From Prochlorococcus sp. AG-679-M23 (GTDB lineage: Bacteria > Cyanobacteriota > Cyanobacteriia > PCC-6307 > Cyanobiaceae): a stretch of 64,000 nucleotides of DNA. The stretch covers positions 1 through 64,000 of the forward strand of contig QCUR01000001.1 in the NCBI GenBank assembly GCA_003208875.1, in the 5' to 3' direction. The first letter of the stretch is position 1, and the number at the start of each line of letters is the position of its first letter. The notes beneath the pieces were generated by a model. It was not told the origin of the DNA, searched no databases, and saw nothing but the letters and a program-made list of their open reading frames with translations. The translations under genes were made by a program, and so were the position numbers. Of this stretch, positions 22,718 through 35,003 are shown piece by piece.

Positions 22718-24304
22718 ATGAGTAAAAATTTACTAAAAAAAGAGAGAGATCCCTCAATATTAATTTTAGATTTCGGATCTCAATATTCTGAATTAATTGC
22801 AAGGAGAATAAGAGAAGCAGATGTATTTTCTCTTGTTGTTAGTAACTTTACCTCTATCAAGGAGATTCAGGATATTAATCCAAAAGGGATTATTTTAAGT
22901 GGTGGCCCAAGTTCTGTTTATGAAGATAATGCACCTAAATGTGACGCAAAGATTTTTGATTTAGGGATTCCAGTTTTGGGTATATGTTACGGAATGCAAT
23001 TAATGGTTAAAGAATTGGGAGGTGAAGTTACCCCAGCAATTAATAAAGCTGAATATGGCAGAGCACCAATAAATATTGATTGCGAAAGTGATTTGCTATC
23101 TAATGTCCAAGACAAATCTATTATGTGGATGAGTCATGGGGATTCTATAAATAACTTGCCTGAAGGATTTATTAAAATCTCTCATACAGAAAATACGCTG
23201 CATGCTGCAATATCAAACAAACAAAAGAAATTATTTGGTGTTCAATTTCATCCTGAAGTTATACATTCAGAATTCGGAATGACGGTAATTAAAAACTTTG
23301 TTTATTCTATTTCTAAATGTAAGGCCGATTGGACTACTGAAACATTTTTAGAGGAAACAATTCCAAGAATTAAGCAACAAGTAGGTGATAAGAAAGTTTT
23401 ACTTGCTCTTTCTGGCGGCGTAGATTCATCAACCCTCGCTTTTCTTCTCAATCAAGCTATTGGGAAACAACTTACTTGTATGTTTATTGATCAAGGCTTT
23501 ATGAGAAAAGGTGAACCTGAATTTTTAATGGAATTTTTTGATAAAAAATTTCATATTAAGGTTGAATATATTAACGCTAGGGAAAGATTTATTAATAAAT
23601 TAAATGGAATAACTGATCCAGAAGAAAAACGCAAGATTATTGGTAGAGAATTTATTAGAGTTTTTGAAGAGGAGAGTAATAGATTAGGCCCTTTCCAATA
23701 TTTGGCTCAAGGTACTCTTTACCCAGATGTTATTGAGAGTGCTGGAACGAATTTAGATCCTAAGACTGGTGAGCGAATTGCAGTGAAAATAAAAAGTCAT
23801 CACAATGTAGGCGGTTTGCCAAAAGATTTACAATTTAAATTAGTGGAACCATTAAGAAAACTTTTTAAAGATGAAGTAAGAAAGGTTGGGGGTGCTTTAG
23901 GATTGCCAGATGAAATTATAAAAAGACACCCATTTCCTGGTCCTGGCTTAGCAATAAGAATTTTAGGTGAAGTTTCTCATGAAAAACTAAACTGTTTGAG
24001 AGATGCAGACTGGATAGTAAGAGATGAAATAAAAAAATCAGGTCTTTATGATGATATATGGCAAGCATTTGCTGTTCTTTTACCTGTCAAGACTGTCGGT
24101 GTAATGGGAGACAAACGGACCTATGCTTGGCCAGTAGTTTTACGATGCGTATCAAGCGAAGATGGTATGACGGCTGATTGGTCGAGAATTCCTTATGAAA
24201 CCTTAGAGAGAATTTCTAATAGAATCGTTAATGAAGTAGAGCAGGTTAATAGAGTTGTTTTCGATATTACTAGTAAGCCTCCAGGAACAATTGAGTGGGA
24301 GTAA
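22718..24304 (+). CDS. guaA: GMP synthase (glutamine-hydrolysing)
   Basis: [29 protein letters not shown] and C-terminal KPPGTIEWE. Confidence 0.98.
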
Positions 24305-24540
24305 TTAAAGGGGTATAAAGTCAGTCATAGTCTAAAAAAAGCGGTTACACGTGGGTTACACGTGAGAATCTGTTATCCTATTTGCAATGGATCTCAACAG
24401 CGAGGTTACACGTGGGTTACACGTGAGGGTAAAATCTCATCTCTATAGAGAAATCGTATAAAAATAAATTTCTCTACACTTTCCACATTTTTATGGTTTT
24501 ATTTTCTGACTAATGGGTACTAAAGGAAAGGGTGCAAAAA
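24284..24540 (+). repeat. att site 1 (guaA end plus right arm)
   Basis: GAGTGGGA at 24293-24300. GGTTACACGTG x2 at 24343-24364 and again at 24404-24425. TCTCTATAGAGA at 24440-24451. Confidence 0.9.
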
Positions 24541-24593
24541 CTTATGAATTTTACGAAGAGTTACCCATGCTTTATGGAATTACTTATCCATAA
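24513..24593 (+). pseudogene. Truncated N-terminal gene stub (possibly the element's integrase)
   Basis: MGTKGKGAKTYEFYEELPMLYGITYP*. A homologous stub, MGIKGRNTKI*, lies at the same offset after att2. Confidence 0.35.
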
Positions 24594-24717
24594 AATATTT
24601 TCATTTATTTAAATAGAGGAATAAGATGAAAAGACTTAGAACAAAATTAGATCATTGGATTGCTAGAAATCCAAAAAAAAATGGTTTTTCTTTCGCGTCT
24701 GAAGAAATTGCATAATT

Positions 24718-25974
24718 GTGATGTTTTTTGGAGATTCTGCCTATCAAGTAAATCAAACTATTCACCCAACTGAATTATTGCCTGAATCTCCATATATTGG
24801 GTTGGAACATATTGAACAAGAATCTCTTCAACTAATTGGGATAGGAGACGCTTCAAAAGTTACTAGTAACAAAAGAATTTTCAGAAAAGGAGATATTCTT
24901 TTTGGAAAACTTAGACCTTACTTTAGAAAAGTTATAAATGCAGATTTTGATGGAATTTGTTCAACGGATATATGGGTGATACGTCCAAAAGAAAATATAG
25001 ATAGTAATTTTCTATATTATTGGTGTTCTAGTTGGGAATTCATAAATTTTGTAAATTCAGCAAGTGAAGGGACAAGAATGCCTCGAGCAAAATGGGAAGT
25101 TGCAATAAATCATGAAATTCCTAATCATACTTATGAAAACCAAAAGATAATTGGAAATATACTTGGTTCTCTTGATAAAAAAATACAACTAAACAAAAAA
25201 ACTAATTACACACTTGAAGAAATAGCGAAAGCACTTTTCAAATCATGGTTTATTGATTTCGATCCAGTAAGAGCAAAAGCAAAAGGACTTTCAACTGGAT
25301 TACCTGATGAGATTAGTGATTTATTTCCTAGTTCTCTAGAGAACTCTGAATTAGGAGAGATACCAAGTAATTGGAAAAAAACCTCAATTTCTCAATTGAT
25401 AGAAATAAACCCAATAAGAAAAATTACAAAAAATACAATTGCTCCATTTCTTGAAATGAAGGGAGTTCAAACTTATGGACATACTTCAAAGGGAGTTTAT
25501 GATCGCCAATTTACTTCTGGTACAAAATTTCAACAAGGGGACACCTTATTGGCAAGAATAACACCATGTCTCGAAAATGGTAAAACCGCTATGGTGGATT
25601 TTCTAGATGAGGGACAAATTGGATGGGGATCTACAGAATTCATAGTTCTTAGTGGTAAAGAAAAAATACATAATCCTTTTGTTTACTATTTATCTAGATC
25701 AGAAAAATTTAGAGAATATGCAATTAGAAATATGACTGGATCAAGTGGAAGACAAAGAGTTCCTCCCAATATTTTATATGATTTTAATATCGCAAAACCG
25801 CCAACTAATATCCTCAATTTATTTTCAGAAATTGCTTATTCATTTCTTCAAAAAATAACTATTGGATCACAAGAAAATAGTTCACTTGAAAAAATTAGAA
25901 ATACTCTTCTTCCAAAACTTATTTCAGGAGAACTTAGTACATTTGATGCTGCAAGAAAGATTCAAGATCTTTGA
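24718..25974 (+). CDS. hsdS: Type I restriction-modification specificity subunit (orphan)
   Basis: Two TRDs (KGDILFGKLRPY; GDTLLARITPCLENGK), conserved spacer QKIIGNILGSLDKKI..LEEIAKALFKSWF, and C-terminal RNTLLPKLISGEL. Confidence 0.9.
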   Translation: MMFFGDSAYQVNQTIHPTELLPESPYIGLEHIEQESLQLIGIGDASKVTSNKRIFRKGDILFGKLRPYFRKVINADFDGICSTDIWVIRPKENIDSNFLYYWCSSWEFINFVNSASEGTRMPRAKWEVAINHEIPNHTYENQKIIGNILGSLDKKIQLNKKTNYTLEEIAKALFKSWFIDFDPVRAKAKGLSTGLPDEISDLFPSSLENSELGEIPSNWKKTSISQLIEINPIRKITKNTIAPFLEMKGVQTYGHTSKGVYDRQFTSGTKFQQGDTLLARITPCLENGKTAMVDFLDEGQIGWGSTEFIVLSGKEKIHNPFVYYLSRSEKFREYAIRNMTGSSGRQRVPPNILYDFNIAKPPTNILNLFSEIAYSFLQKITIGSQENSSLEKIRNTLLPKLISGELSTFDAARKIQDL

Positions 25975-26054
25975 TCTACTTCTTCTATAAAAAAGTTTTT
26001 CTCTACAAAAAAATGATATTTTTAGTTGTCATTTGGTTGCTTTTGATGCATTTC

Positions 26055-26405
26055 AGTTACACGTGGGTTACACGTGAAGAAACCTGTCTTATTCTTCCCT
26101 CAAATCAACTGATATGACTATGTCTCTGGCAGTACAAATTCTCGTGACTATCGAGTGGGAATAACAGATAGGTTATAAACCTAGTTATAGGCGCAAAAAG
26201 TTGGTTTCACGTGGGTTTCACGTAGAATATTTACTACCTATTTGCAATGGTTTTCGATGGCGGTCTTTCACGTAAGTTTCACGTGATGCAAAAAGTCCGT
26301 CTCTATAGAGAAATCATAAAAGAACTTATGTCTCTACACTTTCTTTTTTTATAGAGCGATATTTTTTGATTTATGGGTATAAAAGGCAGAAATACAAAAA
26401 TCTAA
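26055..26405 (+). repeat. att site 2 (left arm, core and right arm)
   Basis: Arm pair at 26055-26076, core GAGTGGGA at 26153-26160 (VTIEWE*), arm pairs at 26203-26224 and 26264-26285. Colinear with att1 at offset 1860. Confidence 0.9.
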
Positions 26406-26607
26406 ATGGAGTTATAAATCCTTGAATTTACTTTTTTGCTTCAATTGATTCAGAAATCGTAACTAGATATCTATTTTGGATATATCTATTTGATTACTTT
26501 TATTAAAAATAAAAAAAGATACACAAAGTGTTTACCTTCAAGAAATTTAAGTCTTTATAAAGGTTGTCATTTAGAACATAAATGAGAATAAAATAATTTA
26601 CTTCAAA

Positions 26608-26637
26608 TAAGTGTGTATAAGGGTGTATATGTGTGTT
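26608..26637 (+). promoter_or_regulatory. Triple 10-bp direct repeat upstream of mreB (candidate operator)
   Basis: TAAGTGTGTA TAAGGGTGTA TATGTGTGTT. Confidence 0.55.
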
Positions 26638-26680
26638 ACTATAAAAGAAGTATTTAAATTTAGTAATTTTTAGTAGGTAT

Positions 26681-27733
26681 ATGTTTTGGAATAGATTTCA
26701 ATTTTCTAGAGACATAGGTATTGACTTGGGTACTGCCAATACTCTTATTCATGTATCTGGGAAAGGCGTAATTCTGGAAGAACCTTCTGTAGTAGCTATG
26801 GATTTAGAAGAGGGAACTCCTTTGGCAGTAGGTGAAGAAGCAAAATTAATGCTTGGAAGAACCCCAGGAAATATAAGAGCAGTAAGACCTCTAAAGGATG
26901 GGGTTATTGCAGACTTTGACGCAGCGGAACAAATGATAAAAACTTTTATTCAAAAATGTAATGAAGGAAAGGGTCTTTTAGCTCCAAGAATAGTTATTGG
27001 TATTCCAAGTGGCGTTACCAGTGTTGAACGAAGAGCAGTTCGAGAAGCAGGATTAGCAGGGGCACGGGAAGTCTATTTAATCGATGAACCTGTAGCTGCC
27101 GCAATAGGAGCTTCTTTGCCAGTAACGGAACCAATTGGAACTATGATCGTTGATATTGGCGGTGGAACAACTGAAGTAGCAGTATTGAGTCTTGGAGGAA
27201 CAGTTGTAAGTGAATCTCTTCGAATAGCAGGAGATGAAATAAATGAATCAATAGCTACCTATCTTAAAAAAAAGCATAATATGGTTGTTGGTGAAAGAAC
27301 ATCAGAAAAGATAAAAATTAAAATAGGTTCTGCTTTCCCTGATGACAGTTTTGACAATACATCTTTTGAAGTTAAGGGATTACACTTATCTTCCGGCTTA
27401 CCAAGATCTATTGCTTTAACTGCAGGAGAAATTAGAGAGGCTATGACTGATCCTCTTAGTAAAATAATTGAAGCTATAAAAAGAACTCTCGAGCGAACTC
27501 CTCCTGAATTAGCGGCAGATATTGTTGAGAGAGGAATCATGCTCGCGGGAGGTGGAGCTCTAATAAAGGGAATTAATGATTTAGTAACTCAAGAAACTGG
27601 AATTTTTACTCACATAGCAGAAGATCCATTGTTATGCGTAGTTAATGGCTGCGGAAATGTACTTGATGATTTCAGAAGACTTAGGAGGTGTGTAGACACG
27701 GTTGATTTAGGAACTAATTCAATAAGGACTTAA
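26681..27733 (+). CDS. mreB: Rod shape-determining actin homolog MreB (island copy, no adjacent mreC)
   Basis: IGIDLGTANT, RPLKDGVIADF, IDEPVAAAIG, DIGGGTTE and LAGGGAL motifs. Confidence 0.95.
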   Translation: MFWNRFQFSRDIGIDLGTANTLIHVSGKGVILEEPSVVAMDLEEGTPLAVGEEAKLMLGRTPGNIRAVRPLKDGVIADFDAAEQMIKTFIQKCNEGKGLLAPRIVIGIPSGVTSVERRAVREAGLAGAREVYLIDEPVAAAIGASLPVTEPIGTMIVDIGGGTTEVAVLSLGGTVVSESLRIAGDEINESIATYLKKKHNMVVGERTSEKIKIKIGSAFPDDSFDNTSFEVKGLHLSSGLPRSIALTAGEIREAMTDPLSKIIEAIKRTLERTPPELAADIVERGIMLAGGGALIKGINDLVTQETGIFTHIAEDPLLCVVNGCGNVLDDFRRLRRCVDTVDLGTNSIRT

Positions 27734-27834
27734 TTACTTTTCTGATGAATTTTTTACTAGTAAAAACTAGATAAAAAATCATACTTTAATAAAAAAATTC
27801 TTTCTTTTAATATCCACTGAGAAACAATTTAAAA

Positions 27835-27993
27835 ATGAATCAAGAGCAAAGAAAGAAATTACCTAATAAAAAAATAATTCGCTCAGCAAAATTTGAAGCA
27901 AAAGAACAATTTACCAAATCTGCATTAGAAAATTTAAAAAATGAAAATGAAAGAATTGTTAATTCATTAAAAGAATCTGGTGAAATCGATTAA
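27835..27993 (+). CDS. Small hypothetical protein (52 aa)
   Basis: Hand-translated MNQEQRKKLPNKKIIRSAKFEAKEQF...ESGEID*; below the ORF-track cutoff. Confidence 0.5.
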   Translation: MNQEQRKKLPNKKIIRSAKFEAKEQFTKSALENLKNENERIVNSLKESGEID

Positions 27994-28054
27994 TTAAATA
28001 AAGAACTTTCTACATGATTTATTAAAGCCTAAACGAAGAAAAATTTAAGATTTA

Positions 28055-28411
28055 TTATTTTTCTAATAAATAAAATTTCTCTTCACCAACTTTGTCTGGT
28101 TTCACTATTTTACAACCTTTATCTTTTTCTAAATCGCAATCTTTCGAGGCAGCAACTGTTTTCCATGAACAAACTTTTTCTTCTGAGTATTCTTGTTTAA
28201 TCGTCCACCCATCGTTGATATACTTTTCGAGATTACTATTTTCTCCACATGAAACTGTAATTTCAATACTATTTTCTTTTTTAATACTTTCTTCTGATGA
28301 TTGTATTCCAAAACTGTTTTTAATTTCAGTCGCTTTTTTCTCCAATATTTTGCAACCGCCAACTAGAAATAGGATCATAAATATATAAAGTAATTTTTTA
28401 TATTCTTTCAT
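28055..28411 (-). CDS. Predicted lipoprotein, Cys-rich
   Basis: Signal peptide with lipobox LVGG-C; ATGA overlap with the upstream ORF. Confidence 0.75.
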   Translation of the reverse strand: MKEYKKLLYIFMILFLVGGCKILEKKATEIKNSFGIQSSEESIKKENSIEITVSCGENSNLEKYINDGWTIKQEYSEEKVCSWKTVAASKDCDLEKDKGCKIVKPDKVGEEKFYLLEK

Positions 28412-30033
28412 TTATCTATCATGCAAGTATTAAATTTTCTATTCGCTGTTTCTGTAAAGCCAAGATCCAAAAACTTTATGTAGTCACTATTTTTGTCCTT
28501 ACATATTTTTTCTTTGTTTTCAATTTGTATTTTTCTCTGTTCTTGAATTAATATTTGATTTCTGAAGTTCTCGATAAATTTATAAATATATGGAATAGTT
28601 GCTATGAAGAATCCAATAAAAAATGAAAAAGCAAATGCCGAAGTATATTTTTTAGAGTTATTTTTAAGACTAATTTTTGCAAAATAATTATTTAGTTTAA
28701 ACATAATTTTAATTTTTTTTTTAATTACTATCGCTGCTCCAATTTCTTGTAATTTTGTAGAGAAATTTTCGTATCCTCTTTCTAAATGCTCTACCCCTCC
28801 AATCAAAGTTGTCCCACCTGCTGAAAGTCCTGCAAGAGCCAATGCAGCCGAAGCTCTTAAATCAGATCCTAGAATTACACTTCCTTTTAAGTTTTCAACC
28901 CCGACTACTGTTGCAATATTATCTTTTAAAGTAATGTTTGCCCCCATACGATTTAGCTCTTTAACATGATGCATTCTATTTTCAAATACTGTTTCTTTAA
29001 TTTTTGAAATACCATTTGCTGTTGCCATTAAAGCCATAAAAGGTGCCTGTAGATCAGTTGGGAAACCAGGAAATGGACTTGTCGTCATATCAACTGAATT
29101 TAAAATTTGATTGGGAATGATTTTTAAACAAAAATCTGAATATTCGAACTTGCAGCCACAAAGTTCTAGTTTGTTAATTACTGCTTTTAAGTGATTTGGT
29201 TCGCATGGGAAAAGACTAATTGTTGATCTTGTTATTGCCGCAGCAAGTAAAAAAGTACCTGCTTCAATTCTGTCAGGTATTACTGTGTAATCGCATCCTT
29301 TTAGGGATTCAACTCCTTCAATTGTTATACATTCAGATCCCGCACCTTTTATTCGTGCACCCATTAGATTCAACATGTTTGCTAAATCTACAATTTCTGG
29401 CTCCTCTGCTGCGTTGTTTAATATAGTTTTCCCTTTAGCTAAAGATGCTGCCATTAATAAAGTCTCAGTGGCACCTACACTTTTGCATTGAAAATTGATT
29501 GATGATCCCAACAATCTTTTTTTGGGATTAATTACTTTAGCTATTAAATAATTATTTCGGTATTGAAATACAACTCCTAATTTTTTCAGTGAATTTATAT
29601 GTTCATCGATTGGTCTGGATCCTATCGAACATCCTCCCGGTAAGGGTATCTTAGCTGTTCCAAATCTTGCAAGGATTGGACCAATACAAAAGAAACTCAC
29701 TCTAAGGGCATGATATAAATCAAAAAATAAATCTTGAGGTGGAATGATAATTTCTTTAGTATTTATTGTTAATTGATTTGTATTCGATTTTATATTTATA
29801 CCCATTGCAATTAATAATTTAGACATAATTGCAACATCTGAAATTTGAGGAACATTAAAAAGATTTATTTCGCCTTTAGAAAGAATTGACGCTGCCATTA
29901 GGACTAGAGCAGAATTTTTAGCACCACTAATTTTTAAATGCCCTTCAAGGGGGTTGCCTCCTTTTACTTCGATATAATTTTTGAAAAAGTAATCGACTCT
30001 AGGGGGTTGAAGAGTTTTATTTTGTATTTTCAT
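28408..30033 (-). CDS. murA: UDP-N-acetylglucosamine 1-carboxyvinyltransferase with an in-frame ~100-aa membrane-protein extension
   Basis: GAKNSAL, LPGGCSIGSRPID (active-site Cys), PDRIEAGT, FPTDLQ, DLRASAAL and RGYE motifs. The extension begins at an internal ATG at 28704. Confidence 0.92.
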   Translation of the reverse strand: MKIQNKTLQPPRVDYFFKNYIEVKGGNPLEGHLKISGAKNSALVLMAASILSKGEINLFNVPQISDVAIMSKLLIAMGINIKSNTNQLTINTKEIIIPPQDLFFDLYHALRVSFFCIGPILARFGTAKIPLPGGCSIGSRPIDEHINSLKKLGVVFQYRNNYLIAKVINPKKRLLGSSINFQCKSVGATETLLMAASLAKGKTILNNAAEEPEIVDLANMLNLMGARIKGAGSECITIEGVESLKGCDYTVIPDRIEAGTFLLAAAITRSTISLFPCEPNHLKAVINKLELCGCKFEYSDFCLKIIPNQILNSVDMTTSPFPGFPTDLQAPFMALMATANGISKIKETVFENRMHHVKELNRMGANITLKDNIATVVGVENLKGSVILGSDLRASAALALAGLSAGGTTLIGGVEHLERGYENFSTKLQEIGAAIVIKKKIKIMFKLNNYFAKISLKNNSKKYTSAFAFSFFIGFFIATIPYIYKFIENFRNQILIQEQRKIQIENKEKICKDKNSDYIKFLDLGFTETANRKFNTCMIDK

Positions 30034-30036
30034 AAA

Positions 30037-30300
30037 TTAAAAGTCTTCAAGGTTTGTCATTGATGAAGAACAATATCGTTTTTGAGAAGCTAAATCCCCG
30101 ATTTCCCAGCAACTTTTTATTTCAACATTATTTTCAGGAGATGAAAACTTTATTATTAATGGTGATTGATTTGTATTAGTTAAATCGAAGGCATTAACAC
30201 TTTTGTTCCTACCGAGAGATGAAGCTGCCGGTTTTGTTTGTTCTAAAAAAGCTAAAGGAAGAAAAAATAGAAGCGTTGTTAATACAGTTTTCTTATTCAT
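30037..30300 (-). CDS. Small exported hypothetical protein
   Basis: Signal-peptide-like N-terminus and a Cys pair; ends 3 nt upstream of the murA start. Confidence 0.6.
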   Translation of the reverse strand: MNKKTVLTTLLFFLPLAFLEQTKPAASSLGRNKSVNAFDLTNTNQSPLIIKFSSPENNVEIKSCWEIGDLASQKRYCSSSMTNLEDF

Positions 30301-30540
30301 TTTTAATTACTTTGAATAATTCATTTTCAAAATGATTCATTATTTCTGATGTCTCAAAAATAAAGATTTTAAGATTTGATCAGTCCAAGTATTAATAGAT
30401 TGCTTTTTAAGAAAGCATTACTTTCTAAGGTTTTTAACTGAGCAAATAATTGTTTCACTGAAGAATTAAATAAATGCTAAAAAACCTTTGACTGTTGTGA
30501 TCCCCATCACCACTGCCTCGCAGATGTGTCTCTTAATAGT

Positions 30541-30570
30541 TACACACTTATACATACTATAACACACTTT
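30541..30570 (-). promoter_or_regulatory. Triple 10-bp repeat (candidate operator) in the divergent promoter region
   Basis: TACACACTTA TACATACTAT AACACACTTT is the reverse complement of the mreB-upstream motif. A further exact TAAGTGTGTA lies at 30677-30686. Confidence 0.55.
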
Positions 30571-30716
30571 GAATATTTGTTTGTTATTTGGATATCATGA
30601 TATAACCTATAAATAACAATAAACATTTAAAGTTAATTTGCCGGATTAGTATTAATAAATACTATTTGTTATACTATAAGTGTGTATCGTTTTCTGTAAT
30701 TTACATTAATCAACTA

Positions 30717-31187
30717 ATGCCTACTAAGCTTGATAGGGTACAGGTTCTTTTTCAGAAAGAGTTATTTAAAAAGCTTAAGGTAATTGCAAAAATTGAGCGC
30801 AGATCGTTATCTAGTATGGTTGGAAGCATTGTAGAAGATGCAATGAATTCTAAAAAATATCAATCTCTTTTATCGAAGGCAAAGTCAGATGATTTAAAAT
30901 CAAAAATTGATGAAAGTAAATTCTTAATTAATGAAATTTTAAAATCTAAGAGTTCAAATCAATCAGATATTGATGAAAATTCTAAATTAAAACAAATTGA
31001 AGATATACTCTCTTTAATATCAGAATCTCATAAAGAATCATTGGAGGAATCAGTGGGAAAAGATTTATTATTAGTAGAAGAAGCTTTGAAACCAGACGGT
31101 TTAATTGAAGAATTAGAATTGGAAACAGATTATAAGATTAATAAAATGAATGTAATGCTCAGTAAAATCAATAAAAATAAGGATTAA
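30717..31187 (+). CDS. Ribbon-helix-helix (CopG/Arc-like) DNA-binding protein with an acidic helical tail
   Basis: MPTKLDRVQVLF (beta strand), KELFKKLKVIAKIE (helix), RRSLSSMVGSIV (helix). Confidence 0.7.
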   Translation: MPTKLDRVQVLFQKELFKKLKVIAKIERRSLSSMVGSIVEDAMNSKKYQSLLSKAKSDDLKSKIDESKFLINEILKSKSSNQSDIDENSKLKQIEDILSLISESHKESLEESVGKDLLLVEEALKPDGLIEELELETDYKINKMNVMLSKINKNKD

Positions 31188-31209
31188 ATTCGACACTAAG
31201 AGATAAATA

Positions 31210-31524
31210 ATGAATAAATTTGAAAAAATGGAAAAGAGAATGGATGAGTGGCAGAGCGGAATAAGAATTCTCTATAAAGATATCCAAACAATCCGTAACT
31301 GGACGGATGAGCAGGTTTGGAAAGAACTTGAAAATGAGATAAAAAGAATTACTCCTGAGGGTCAATTTGGCGAGGACGACTTGGCTTGGACCAGAGAAAT
31401 TCTTACATCAAAAAGAGATGTTACTTTATGGGAAGCGGTAAGACTTACTATTAGATTTAAACATTCAACGCCTCTGTTAGATGCTCTTGGTAATCTTAGA
31501 GCTCGAGATAAATCTGGAACTTAA
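31210..31524 (+). CDS. Hypothetical protein (paralog A)
   Basis: 104-aa ORF that aligns by eye with 31589-31897. Confidence 0.75.
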   Translation: MNKFEKMEKRMDEWQSGIRILYKDIQTIRNWTDEQVWKELENEIKRITPEGQFGEDDLAWTREILTSKRDVTLWEAVRLTIRFKHSTPLLDALGNLRARDKSGT

Positions 31525-31588
31525 ATATCTATTATGTTTTTTTATAAGCAAATAGAAAATAAGTTTTTTTCAAGAATTTATTTATAGT

Positions 31589-31897
31589 TTGACTAAATTT
31601 ATAGATACATCTGGTTTTGATAATGTCGAACAAGTCAGAAAATGGTATCTAGGTATTCAATCAACTTTTAAGCAAATACAGCAACAAAATAATTATGATA
31701 AAAAACAAGCTTGGGATAAATTAAAAATAGAATTACTTAAATCAGTTGCAAAAGAAGATTTTGTACAGAATGATCTTGAATGGGTTGAAGATCTCCTTCT
31801 TCATGAAATAATTCCAACTACTGAAGAAGCCTGTAGATTTGAAAAAAAATATCCTAATCAAACTCCTTTAATTGATGCGCTTGCCAAAATCTTCTAA
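31589..31897 (+). CDS. Hypothetical protein (paralog B)
   Basis: 102-aa ORF with a TTG start. Shares W..GI, QxW, DLxW, EAxR and TPLxDAL with paralog A. Confidence 0.75.
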   Translation: MTKFIDTSGFDNVEQVRKWYLGIQSTFKQIQQQNNYDKKQAWDKLKIELLKSVAKEDFVQNDLEWVEDLLLHEIIPTTEEACRFEKKYPNQTPLIDALAKIF

Positions 31898-31909
31898 TTT
31901 ATTTTTGAT

Positions 31910-32848
31910 TTAAATAACACTTACCCCTGTAAACGTTTTGATATTATCTATAGTTTTTTTTGGAGTTTTTATAAGATCTTCATATGTAACTTCTATTAAA
32001 TTGTCCTTAGGAATAAGATTTTTCATTATTTGCCATTTATCTAATATGAAGGATCTAGTAAACTTTGCATCTTTCTCTGCGTTCCCAAGATATGGAATAA
32101 AACCAAATTCTTTATTAAATGATTTGATAGATTTTTCTATACTTTTCACATGATCGTATTTACGTTCAATGTAAATAAATTTTGAGTTGGGAAATAACTC
32201 AAGTAATAAGTCAACTCTCGTTGTAAATGCTGGAGCTTTATTGATAAAAACTTTTCCAGGTAAACCATCATGAATCCATGCCCATTCAAGAAGTAATTTT
32301 AATTTTTTTTTGAAATCTAATGTAGCTTTCCATTTGTACCATCTTTCTAAATCCTTAGATAATGACTTTCCAAGACCAATTGATGTTGGAGGATGTTCGC
32401 AACTCAATCTCATTAATGCAATATCTAACTCTTGAGGTCCCTCTGCTAATAATGGGACCCAATCAAAAAATCTATTTTTATAAGATGGTATAAATTTGCG
32501 AAAAAGTTCTTTAAATATTAAGGCTGCCTGAGGGCAACATGAAAACGTATTTTTTATTGTAGCTGCTTTAGTAGCTTTAACTATTTCTGTGTGGAGGTAT
32601 GTTGTTCCACTTCTCCATGCACCTATAATAAAAATTGGATCAGGCATATTCTTTGGCTTCTTGTAAAGAATTTTTTGCAACCAATAAAGAGGTTCAGCCA
32701 ACCAACCGAGTACAATATTCTGGAATAAATAAAAAGAAATAATAGGAAATCTATTAGCTTTTTTTAACAACTCAAACTGAACAGAAGGTCTTAAGCATCC
32801 AATAATAATTAAGCGTGGATTGAAAAACAATAATCTATTTATATTCAA
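31910..32848 (-). CDS. Sulfotransferase family protein
   Basis: PIFIIGAWRSGTTYL 5'-PAPS-binding loop, INKAP, FPNSKFIYIER and VTYEDL..P motifs. Confidence 0.85.
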   Translation of the reverse strand: MNINRLLFFNPRLIIIGCLRPSVQFELLKKANRFPIISFYLFQNIVLGWLAEPLYWLQKILYKKPKNMPDPIFIIGAWRSGTTYLHTEIVKATKAATIKNTFSCCPQAALIFKELFRKFIPSYKNRFFDWVPLLAEGPQELDIALMRLSCEHPPTSIGLGKSLSKDLERWYKWKATLDFKKKLKLLLEWAWIHDGLPGKVFINKAPAFTTRVDLLLELFPNSKFIYIERKYDHVKSIEKSIKSFNKEFGFIPYLGNAEKDAKFTRSFILDKWQIMKNLIPKDNLIEVTYEDLIKTPKKTIDNIKTFTGVSVI

Positions 32849-32980
32849 AATAAAGATTATCTATGGAACTTTCGATAAGTCAATCAGTACTTATTTCTTT
32901 TGTAAGATACTCAAACTAATCTTTACATCTCTATGAAAGTAAAGTAATAAATATTTTTTCTTAAGGTTCGTTGCCTACTA

Positions 32981-33254
32981 GGTTTCACGTGGGTTTCACG
33001 TGGCGGAATACGTGTTATAATATGTTCAGACCCATTGATATAACTGTCTTTTTTATTAACCTTTTTGGAGGGACTATTGAGTGGGAGTAACTAAAGAGGT
33101 ATAAACCTTGTCATAGTCTAAAAAACTCGGTTAAACGTGAGAATCTCTTATCCTATTTGCAATGGATCTCAACAACGAGGTTAAACGTAGGTTACACGTG
33201 AGGGTAAAATCTCATCTCTATAGAGAAATCGTAGAGTTTTAAATTTCTCTACAC
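32981..33254 (+). repeat. att site 3 (left arm, core and right arm)
   Basis: GGTTTCACGTG x2 at 32981-33002, core at 33079-33086 (GTIEWE*), arm repeats at 33129-33139 and 33179-33200. The right arm is nearly identical to that of att1. Confidence 0.9.
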
Positions 33255-33263
33255 CTTAATAAA

Positions 33264-33581
33264 TTAGTTAATTATTTTTTTAATTTTTTCTAAATTCCAT
33301 TTATCAAATATTAATTTCATTTCTCTTTCGTAGTATCTTACTTTTTTTGAGAAAGGTAGTTGTTGAATAATTATCCCAAAGGGAAATTTAAAAAAAGAAG
33401 AAACATAAACAATATAAAACTCGACAAATGAAGGTTTTGGTGGGAGAGGTAAATTTTTTAAATATGCCCAATCAATGCATGGTTTTAGTTGCTGATCACT
33501 AGCAGCAATATTTTTTCTACATCTCCAGTAAGAGAATAGATAAATGCCAATAAAAATCGGTAAAGGAAGAAGTCGTAACAT
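33264..33581 (-). CDS. Hypothetical membrane protein
   Basis: 105-aa ORF with hydrophobic segments. Confidence 0.6.
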   Translation of the reverse strand: MLRLLPLPIFIGIYLFSYWRCRKNIAASDQQLKPCIDWAYLKNLPLPPKPSFVEFYIVYVSSFFKFPFGIIIQQLPFSKKVRYYEREMKLIFDKWNLEKIKKIIN

Positions 33582-33741
33582 TAAATATCAAGGATGATTT
33601 TTCTTCTCATTTACTCATATACCTGTTTGATAATAAATGGATAGTTTAGTTTTTATGGAAATTTTGCTTAAATGATTTTTAGAATTTTCAATTATTTTAT
33701 GCGATATCTCTATACAAATCTCCTAGATTTTTAAATCAAAA

Positions 33742-33927
33742 TCATTCAAAAAGTATTTCTTCAGGATTTCTGTATTGAATTAAACCTTCATATTCTGAAT
33801 CAACCTTTTTAAGATATTCTGCTACATGCTTATAACCTTGATCAAAAACAATTTCAATAACCAATTCAGCAAGTTTTTTGCCATTAATTAACAAAAGAGG
33901 ATATTTATCTTCAAGAATTTCAATCCT
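33742..33927 (-). pseudogene. C-terminal fragment of an Mrr/AspBHI-like restriction endonuclease
   Basis: Startless frame RIEILEDKYPLLLINGKKLAELVIEIVFDQG...RNPEEILFE*. EDxYPLLLINGxxLAE resembles the end of the Mrr catalytic domain. Confidence 0.5.
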
Positions 33928-34000
33928 TTATCTGTTTTGTGAAAAGAAATAGTGTGTAAAAATCACACTGAATTGAAATCTTTTTCATTAGATTAAAAGA

Positions 34001-34070
34001 ATCAGAAACTCCTCACACACTAATTTCTGATCACTAAACGCCCCGATTCGAAAGAATTAGGGTGTTTTTT
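34001..34070 (+). ncRNA. Yfr1-motif small RNA (Yfr1/Yfr10-like)
   Basis: Conserved ACTCCTCACAC at 34008-34018 inside the stem ATCAGAAA/TTTCTGAT, then a GAAA-loop terminator hairpin and T-run. TAGATT -10 at 33989-33994. Confidence 0.8.
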
Positions 34071-34170
34071 AATGCAATTAAGTCTTTTAGGTCGTAACTG
34101 GTATATGTGACAATTAAGTATTATTACTCACCCCTTCCACGAAAAAGAAAGATATGTAATGAATATTTTT

Positions 34171-34267
34171 GTGTGTAGGAGAGGTTTTGCTGAAACAGTG
34201 GAAACAAGGAAACACTTGATTTAGTAAAACCAGGAAATGACCTCTATAAATAGGGATCTTTTTTTTT
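34171..34267 (+). ncRNA. yfr2: Yfr2-family small RNA
   Basis: 5' GTGTGTAGGAG, stem GGTTTTGCTGA/TTAGTAAAACC enclosing the GGAAACAAGGAAACA loop, then a terminator hairpin and T-run. Ends are approximate. Confidence 0.85.
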
Positions 34268-34509
34268 GCCTAATTTTTTCGAACGAATACTTAAATTTAA
34301 ACAAAATAAAGGGGGATTTGTTTGCCCCTTTCGATTCTTATGTAATCATTATCTAAAAAGTCGGTGAGTGCTACTTACTCCTGAATTATTTCTACTCCTG
34401 TTGAATGGGAAAATATAGTCGTGACAACCACAAAGCACTTCTATTCGAGTAAAAATACTCTATGAATTTTTAGTTAATAGGTAGAAAATAAAGATATATA
34501 GGAGGTTTT

Positions 34510-34692
34510 ATGAAACTATTTAATCAATTTAATATCCTTCCAAAATATTTAACGGCATTTAACTATGCAGGTTTAAATCTGAATGAAACTCCAAACGAAC
34601 TTGAGCAATGTCCTATAGAGTTTCAAACTTACTGGGATAAAGAATGTAGGGATAATCCAACTAATCAGAATTGTTTAATTTATTGCGACTGA
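34510..34692 (+). CDS. Small protein with a CP12-like C-terminal motif
   Basis: Strong RBS AGGAGG; ends YWDKECRDNPTNQNCLIYCD. Confidence 0.7.
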   Translation: MKLFNQFNILPKYLTAFNYAGLNLNETPNELEQCPIEFQTYWDKECRDNPTNQNCLIYCD

Positions 34693-34736
34693 GTTATTAA
34701 TTTTTATTATTTATCTAATAAATTTTTTTAAAAAGT

Positions 34737-35003
34737 GGTTTCACACGGGTTTCTCACGAGATAATATTTAAAATTATCCCTTGAGATACACTGCTATGAC
34801 TGTATTTTTAATTTTAATTATTGGCGGTAACATAGAGTGGGAATGAAAATAAGCTATAGACCTAGTTATAGTTAAAAAAAATAGGTTTCAAGTAGGTTTC
34901 AAGTAGGTTTCACTTAGAAAAATTTGTGTTATAATTAACTCAAAACCATTGCTATAACTAATTTTTTATTCACTTTTTTGGAGTGACTATTGAGTAGGAA
35001 TAA
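34737..35003 (+). repeat. att sites 4 and 5 (collapsed empty unit and terminal attR-like site)
   Basis: Arm pair at 34737-34758, core at 34835-34842 (GNIEWE*), arm triplet at 34884-34916, and degenerate core GAGTAGGA at 34992-34999. Confidence 0.85.

Follow-up and report, generated by a model that had tools for sequence, protein, structure and literature searches.

Why does a streamlined Prochlorococcus genome carry a second mreB and a second murA within what appears to be a mobile unit? We addressed this question in Prochlorococcus sp. AG-679-M23, probably a high-light strain (genome G000; 1.65 Mb, 31% GC, 16 contigs). The window, i.e., the whole stretch of DNA analysed, is the first 64,000 nucleotides of its contig C1 (QCUR01000001.1), and the module lies at 26153-33086, a short distance behind guaA. 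The unit is bounded by attachment (att) sites and lacks an integrase. We consider it rather probable that it supplements peptidoglycan synthesis under regulation of its own and that a tyrosine integrase specific for guaA moves it in trans. The module was compared among 285 genomes of the genus (G-labels), 92 of them at least 90% complete; many of the 285 are incomplete, and module counts are therefore lower bounds. Group A denotes the 13 genomes in which the module shares 92-100% identity with the window, and group B denotes seven more distant genomes.

Intact second copies of mreB and murA

Both genes are present as open frames in the window, as the original prediction had claimed: mreB2 at 26681-27733 (+; 350 amino acids, aa) and murA2 at 28408-30033 (-; 541 aa). 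Both are extra copies. Core mreB, 87% identical to MreB2 at the protein level, stands at the head of mreB-mreC-mreD at C2:117553-119899, and core murA, 54% identical to the enzyme part of MurA2, is at C6:94323-95696. A simple translocation of mreB and murA was rejected because core copies of both exist elsewhere in the genome. The unit itself has neither mreC nor mreD, which follow core mreB on C2 instead, and the position of mreB2, outside any mreBCD operon, is not of the core type. The genome also has two SEDS genes.

MreB2 scored 462 with model TIGR00904 (cut-off 365.75) and 510.8 with NF010539 (cut-off 293). Its actin-fold nucleotide motifs are kept (DLGTANT at residue 15, IDEP at 134, DIGGGTTE at 158, LAGGGAL at 288), and at these motifs it aligned without gaps to structures 1jce and 4cze. 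MurA2 scored 508.9 with equivalog TIGR01072 (cut-off 392.7). Alignment to 6q03 showed that active-site residues K39, N40, R111, C135, R140, D327, R353, R393, and R419 are kept; we take these to be the Lys-Asn pair, the loop Cys and Arg, the Asp, and the late Arg residues of the enzyme. Unlike the soluble MurA chain of ~420-460 aa, MurA2 has a 98-aa extension with a predicted transmembrane helix at ~463-484.

Boundaries of the unit

The proposed att-bounded unit of 6.9 kb (26153-33086) proved to run exactly from core to core, between two copies of the 8-bp sequence GAGTGGGA of the guaA 3′ end (26153-26160 and 33079-33086), both accompanied by arm-type repeats. The left junction is attP-like and extends over 26056-26284 (+), with one arm at 26056 before the core and arms at 26204 and 26265 behind it; the right junction (32982-33199, +) has arms at 32982 and 33180. 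The module junctions match attL and attR of an integrase-bearing element in G194 (69-75% identity over 94-308 bp, E 1e-7 to 1e-49), indicating that they are not chance occurrences. Behind the left junction is an integrase 5′ stub of 10 codons (26373-26405, +), and DNA homology to the G194 attL and integrase start continues until 26415. Junctions consist of a core, direct arm-type repeats, and integrase stubs. The description of the unit as a mobile element holds in that it is att-bounded and appears to have spread recently among related hosts; self-mobility does not hold, as only a stub of the integrase is present. The GC profile of the window showed no step at the unit.

The original prediction had also noted the closeness of PBP2 (36722 in the window). 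The position is correct; however, it is ordinary synteny, since genomes with an empty site likewise have pdexk-orf202-PBP2 behind guaA, and the module is located elsewhere in four genomes. PBP2 was therefore rejected as a part of the module. Two genomes, G252 and G269 (L104, L105), have a different integrase of ~500 aa a few kb past PBP2, between two core genes, and may have a second non-tRNA integration site there.

Distribution of the module

Module genes are accessory: they were found in 26 of the 285 genomes, including G282 and partial copies, and in 13 of the 92 that are at least 90% complete. About one in seven well-assembled high-light Prochlorococcus thus has an intact second mreB, usually together with a second murA. 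Both genes occur in one locus in 18 genomes; three loci are cut by contig ends. The module lies in the interval between guaA and pdexk in 20 genomes, and two placements are undetermined. Four genomes (G070, G053, G150, G067) have it at a second site, near EVE-domain and Hsp70-like genes; in three of the four, homology to the window stops at the right-hand core, where the arm has diverged, and there is no left arm. Of the module parts, mreB2 is kept most often and the sulfotransferase gene is among those most often lost. The order mreB2 / lipoprotein / membrane open reading frame (ORF) / murA2 is held even among loci that have diverged as far as core genes have. The cultured P. marinus MIT 9215 has public records of MreB2 (ABV49655.1), the membrane ORF (ABV49657.1), and MurA2 (ABV49658.1).

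Outside the genus, a second murA was found in four genomes (G287, G293, G310, G356) in a sample of 401 genomes of the family; each has one mreB. In G152 (L178, L182), a tract of core MreB is of the MreB2 type, and the assembly is interrupted at one and the same residue in the two copies. Gene conversion between the paralogs, or assembly collapse, is the likely cause.

Origin, selection, and probable recent spread

Trees were built with 20 MreB2 and 20 MurA2 sequences; G282 was classed by context and identity, off the tree. MreB2 forms one clade (support 100/99) nested in high-light core MreB, from which it has 26 near-fixed differences. MreB2 thus derives from a high-light core copy. MurA2 likewise forms one clade (100/100). 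In the best tree the low-light second murA is closest to it (93/88); the two groups have exp87 and c22 in common as upstream genes, and MurA2 probably came from low-light relatives. Such an origin could not be taken as established: in an approximately unbiased (AU) test on a quick tree, MurA2 and the high-light core as one clade was not rejected (p 0.165). In low-light G293 and G356 (L115, L117), murA2-exp87-c22 is divergent from response regulator and histidine kinase genes, at the place where high-light loci have a ribbon-helix-helix (RHH) gene. Regulators were possibly swapped between the low-light and high-light loci.

No stop was found in any of the 20 MreB2 and 20 MurA2 tree sequences. 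Ratios of nonsynonymous to synonymous divergence (dN/dS) were determined in 11 group A and seven group B genomes. The ratio was 0.13 (group A) and 0.06 (group B) for mreB2, 0.17 and 0.20 for murA2, 0.03 for core mreB, 0.14-0.19 for core murA, and 0.2-0.6 for the small module genes. These findings indicate that mreB2 and murA2 are under purifying selection; with ratios of at most 0.20, the decay that the original prediction had named as its possible undoing was not seen.

In group A, mean synonymous divergence (dS) was 0.055 for mreB2 and 0.083 for murA2, versus 0.31 for guaA, 0.36 for PBP2, and 0.27 for core mreB. Module dS relative to the window was 0-0.10 (0.18-0.21 in G087), and that of core genes 0.11-0.58. 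The whole unit was 96.4-99.3% identical, versus 86.7-96.0% for the flanks, in all five group A genomes compared. Because the module is near-identical whereas core genes and flanks of the hosts have diverged, these values point to a recent horizontal sweep in group A.

Fusion of MurA2 to a membrane domain

The separate membrane protein proposed earlier has no ORF of its own in the window. It corresponds to residues 444-541 of the 541-aa MurA frame, a 98-aa domain (28408-28704, -) that continues the MurA2 frame and has one predicted transmembrane helix, two invariant Cys, and a kept ATG of its own at 28704. The junction is fused in 12 of 19 visible loci: 11 group A loci have one junction and G002 has another. 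In the other seven, the stop is kept and a separate ORF of 90-98 aa follows. Because the junction of G002 differs and its MurA2 branches outside the group A clade, the fusion is likely to have arisen twice. Public data hold nine clusters of long (fused) MurA2 forms, the largest with 472 members.

The single hydrophobic segment predicts that fused MurA2 is a cytoplasmic enzyme with an inner-membrane anchor. Unfused products may also be made, given the kept internal ATG and a run of 10 A residues (A10; 28713-28722) in the linker. Programmed slippage at this run is possible; no indel was listed there in the eight runs compared, and G053 holds the frame with a shorter run. A structure model of the membrane domain gave a long helix plus a hairpin (predicted TM-score 0.47). 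Descent of the domain from the core gene for a 145-aa membrane protein beside the core lipoprotein gene found no support (hhalign probability 1.4%, no match by hidden Markov model).

Other genes of the module

The murA2 operon is on the minus strand and consists of exp87, murA2, and the lipoprotein gene. The single operon originally proposed is valid for these genes; mreB2 is not part of it, being on the plus strand and convergent. The first gene is exp87 (30037-30300, -; 87 aa, predicted exported); low-light relatives likewise have it ahead of their second murA. Of c22, the window (30372-30476) shows a faint trace at most (E 0.065). The predicted lipoprotein (28055-28411, -; 118 aa) has a lipobox-like LVGGC and four more invariant Cys; a core lipoprotein encoded at C7:27421-27771 is its paralog (46% identity). 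Its structure model (predicted local distance difference test score 73, best Z 4.3) gave no usable fold, and the Atlas gave it only the automatic name "alpha-2-macroglobulin", without Pfam support.

The RHH protein, two paralogous proteins, and a sulfotransferase named in the original prediction are each present in the unit. The RHH (CopG-like) regulator gene rhh is at 30666-31187 (+), with ATG 30717 as its likely start; it passes PF07878 narrowly (26.3 bits, cut-off 26). Gene u1 (31210-31524, +; 104 aa) has no family match, nor any in the Atlas, and its paralog u2 (31589-31897, +; 102 aa) is 30% identical to it. Most group A loci have a 66-aa ORF that separates rhh from u1; it is absent from the window (31164-31188). 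The sulfotransferase gene (31910-32848, -; 312 aa, PF13469) is separable cargo, occurring alone in its own unit in G076. The lipoprotein, exp87, u1, and u2 matched no Pfam, NCBIfam, PHROG, or PADLOC family. A profile search on the small module proteins returned short relatives only, and a PADLOC scan of six of them returned no match.

Predicted regulation and hints of expression

The module promoters share a 10-bp repeat. Copies resembling AGTGTGTATA lie over a predicted extended -10 box of mreB2 (26607-26650, +), three copies lie upstream of exp87 (30538-30572, -), and one copy lies in the rhh promoter at ~30680; the first two sites are predicted RHH operators. In the whole genome, the repeat pattern matches only these two sites. 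Before mreB2, the repeat decays where rhh is lost: each of the 10 loci with rhh scored 18-20 of 20, and each of the seven without it 11-16 (three contig-end loci unclassed), the pattern being made from the scored sites and the loci being related, so that these values are not a test on independent samples. G022, which has a group B MreB2, has rhh and an intact repeat. The repeat common to the mreB2, murA2-operon, and rhh promoters is thus a lead, not proof, as regards an RHH operator. Scans for sigma-70 promoters and terminators gave results at or below chance level.

The stretch was found in 18 RNA-library runs from seven studies. mreB2 and murA2 were covered by closely matching contigs in all six runs compared (five studies). 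Expression of the two genes is only hinted at.

Probable mobilisation at the guaA hotspot

The guaA site is empty in G005, G007, and G034, in which pdexk comes directly after guaA. A full tyrosine integrase gene directly behind the guaA attL was found in five of the 285 genomes (G194, G184, G118, G153, G190). Three such elements were examined in full (L095:4870-13205 of G194; L096; L101): an integrase of 454-457 aa lies between attL and attR, together with primase-like or serine-recombinase genes. The G194 element has a small serine recombinase; the remaining genes of these elements are primase-like or have no assigned function. Left-arm-like DNA occurs in 84 of the 285 genomes, often as arrays of units of 1-3 genes. 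The units of the window most plausibly arose from such full elements by deletion, with both att arms retained, because the window's junctions match those of G194 and integrase stubs start units 1 and 2.

The guaA 3′ end is a cassette-array hotspot (window 24293-34999; L006, L013, L032, L034, L042, L096, L112) in which tandem units, mostly without integrase, each stand between core-plus-arm junctions. Cargo in relatives includes tetratricopeptide-repeat (TPR), TPR-sulfotransferase, trypsin-TPR, restriction-modification (R-M), and helicase-PLD genes. Many neighbouring units encode a polysaccharide deacetylase, an acyltransferase, or TPR-sulfotransferases.

Contigs from seawater RNA runs join guaA straight to the module unit (X14, X5, X1), and run X1 also has the empty site, seen as a guaA-to-attR loose end. 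In run X19, one contig fuses the left arm repeat to the right one (26202/32981), omitting 6778 bases; this is either a deletion derivative or a mis-join via the repeat. The arm motif had 19 matches in viral contigs, all at one place in seemingly one unrelated phage group, and these were treated as chance.

Proposed function and its alternatives

Under the reading that we favour, the RHH protein would bind the repeat and co-regulate mreB2, the murA2 operon, and its own gene. MurA2 would raise the flux of UDP-N-acetylglucosamine (UDP-GlcNAc) into wall precursors and, in the form found in the window, would do so tethered to the inner membrane. MreB2 filaments would work via core MreC/MreD, SEDS proteins, and PBP2. 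Under some condition, the wall would as a result be thicker, more elongated, or different in its build, and the unit is likely to be moved in trans by rare helper elements with a guaA integrase. An altered wall or shape is the function that we infer. That the module is an integrase-mobilised morphogenesis switch undergoing a sweep seems doubtful to us. In such a reading, an RHH-controlled unit would supply a dedicated MreB and the first MurA with a membrane anchor, fused on two independent occasions; it would tie the committed precursor step to the membrane and allow the smallest phototroph to vary its wall build or shape. The unit would belong to a cassette array that has gone unrecognised, located at guaA instead of a tRNA gene, for which rare helper elements act in trans.

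Several observations weigh against the add-on that we favour. G000 itself has no integrase for the guaA site. Regarding an excised circle, the one metagenome match was attL, and no circle joint was found in the eight runs compared; viral contigs searched with the integrase and MurA2 (MreB2 was not searched) matched neither. Homologous recombination could also spread the unit. Five genomes (G089, G112, G124, G152, G282) have mreB2 without intact murA2. Module and core dS were equal in group B (0.56-0.63 and 0.57-0.61), and the module is therefore old and partly eroded there; several group B copies have no recognisable arms or right-hand core, and most group B loci lack rhh, u1/u2, and the sulfotransferase gene or have them in split form. 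The evolution of MreB2 is faster than that of core MreB (dN/dS 0.06-0.13 versus 0.03). RNA-run contigs also cover intergenic DNA and so cannot prove transcription, and the repeat scores have the dependence described above.

The diverged MreB2 and MurA2 might instead be a backup that evades or titrates phage or toxin inhibitors of the core proteins, in which case the module would serve defence, not shape. Inhibitors of MreB or the Mre system are known from coliphages (T7 Gp0.6 and Emp; 10.64898/2026.09.14.751387), and the 26 near-fixed columns that separate MreB2 from core MreB include charge changes (V198K, D/E210K, H304Q/K) and a new C-terminal tail. The guaA hotspot also holds R-M genes, and the recent sweep is consistent with phage pressure. 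However, no such inhibitor has been shown for cyanophages here, the PADLOC scan of six small module proteins was negative, and a backup leaves the membrane domain, the lipoprotein, and exp87 unexplained; we regard it as unlikely. Chance assembly at a sink, with genes caught singly at guaA and each kept for dosage without joint function, would fit the chimeric origin of the module (MreB2 in the high-light core, MurA2 with low-light copies, the lipoprotein with a core paralog), the independent loss of its parts, and the occurrence of the sulfotransferase alone. It is hard to reconcile with the gene order mreB2 / lipoprotein / membrane ORF / murA2 kept over core-deep divergence, with a promoter repeat that ties separate transcription units, and with two different MurA-membrane fusion junctions, which makes it distinctly unlikely.

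An effect mainly on surface chemistry appears improbable. Here sulfation, a new lipoprotein, and UDP-GlcNAc diverted from lipopolysaccharide would alter the outer envelope and hence recognition by phages or grazers, with MreB2 secondary. The sulfotransferase and lipoprotein of the unit agree with it, as do the many neighbouring units with TPR-sulfotransferases, the acyltransferase, and the polysaccharide deacetylase; however, mreB2 persists more often than any other part, and the sulfotransferase gene is among those lost most often. We give hardly any credence to a neutral passenger in decay. Remnants in G112 and G152, the split sulfotransferase gene of G022, and the loss of c22 and the 66-aa ORF from the window are of the kind that decay would leave; the absence of stops from all 20 MreB2 and all 20 MurA2, dN/dS values of at most 0.20, and the public cluster of 472 fused MurA2 argue against it.

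Comparison with known systems

Proteobacteria are known to have islands at guaA as well as units that lack an integrase. In the accessible text of PMC9376610, GIsul2 has guaA site core GAGTGGGA, and its integrase also excises an integrase-less sub-unit, CR2-sul2. The window resembles GIsul2 in the same 8-bp core at the guaA 3′ end, tandem att sites, and an integrase-less sub-unit. The core is repeated at the borders and relatives have the empty target, as in GIsul2; beside attL, however, there is a stub in place of an own integrase. The present system differs further in that the host is a cyanobacterium, arrays reach five or more units of 1-3 genes, most genomes have no integrase, and the cargo consists of wall, surface, and R-M genes.

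Tycheposons, as described in the main text of 10.1101/2020.12.28.424599, show tandem integration and core-type cargo at seven tRNA/tmRNA sites. The guaA system is similar in that its full elements encode a site-specific tyrosine integrase together with primase-like and small serine recombinase genes, and in that it shows tandem integration and carries core-type functions. It differs in that the target is guaA, not tRNA/tmRNA, and the module unit lacks the integrase and replication modules that full guaA elements of relatives have. Of the island tRNA/tmRNA targets, the window holds a single one, the tmRNA gene at 56.5 kb. That main text has no occurrence of guaA, GMP synthase, mreB, or murA; its supplements may list these integrases. 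As regards an integron cassette array, the G194 integrase scored 19 bits with TIGR02249 (cut-off 265), and no IntI-type integrase was found in the window.

The low-light second murA (AAQ00583.1, named MurA 2 in its source) has the same upstream exp87 and c22. It differs from the module in having no second mreB (one match in each of four genomes), no adjoining membrane domain or lipoprotein, and no guaA site. Bacillus has the MreB paralogs Mbl and MreBH outside mreBCD, as well as MurAA and MurAB, all separately regulated and fixed in the chromosome. The module is similar in having an extra MreB outside the mreBCD operon and an extra MurA; however, MreB2 falls below the MreBH cut-off (386.8 of 515) and MurA2 below that of PRK12830 (446.9 of 552), and both are accessory, linked, and att-bounded.

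In a literature search that left subscription journals mostly outside, no account of the module, or of guaA as a Prochlorococcus hotspot, was found. PMC2211374 and 10.64898/2025.12.29.696893 have no occurrence of murA or mreB, and the accessible text of PMC5345008 has nothing on wall thickness. Module genes are annotated only singly in the cultured strain, and the second murA is annotated in a low-light strain.

Remaining units of the guaA island

The island spans 10.7 kb (24293-34999; features on the plus strand) and consists of four tandem units, the second of which is the module; it is cut by five cores between guaA and the PD-(D/E)XK gene (pdexk) at 24293, 26153, 33079, 34835, and 34992. 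The core gene guaA (22718-24304) holds the integration core in its last codons (24293-24300). The island attL (24293-24424) has core GAGTGGGA and arm repeats at 24344 and 24405, and is 74% identical to the G194 attL over 308 bp. Unit 1 begins with an integrase 5′ stub of 26 codons (24513-24593) that starts MGTKG and is 65% identical over 20 aa to the N-terminus of the G194 integrase; the match has E 0.39 alone but is at the expected position. Its cargo, which lies outside the module, is an orphan type I R-M specificity subunit gene, hsdS (24718-25974). A complete type I R-M system is at C3:164626-170607 (HsdS 35% identical), to which the hsdS cassette might give a second specificity.

Unit 3 (33087-34842, with core 34835) has a 105-aa ORF that recurs at guaA in many relatives, the small RNAs Yfr10 (34001-34080) and Cyano-1 (34169-34236), both therefore within an att-bounded unit, and a 60-aa ORF. 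Unit 4 (34835-34999) is an empty, arms-only unit of 157 bp ending in attR, with core GAGTAGGA at 34992-34999. The bases past this last core are those that follow guaA at the empty site of G034.

Significance

The mreB-murA module is unusual cargo on an otherwise known kind of mobile unit. The membrane-fused MurA and the guaA cassette array are each worth study alone, and the presence of the module in cultured P. marinus MIT 9215 makes the question testable now. Cell shape and wall synthesis are regarded as core traits that do not vary, particularly where genomes are streamlined. If the present reading is true, a linked, selected, and apparently sweeping pair of mreB2 and murA2 would mean that wall build is flexible in the ocean's most abundant phototroph.

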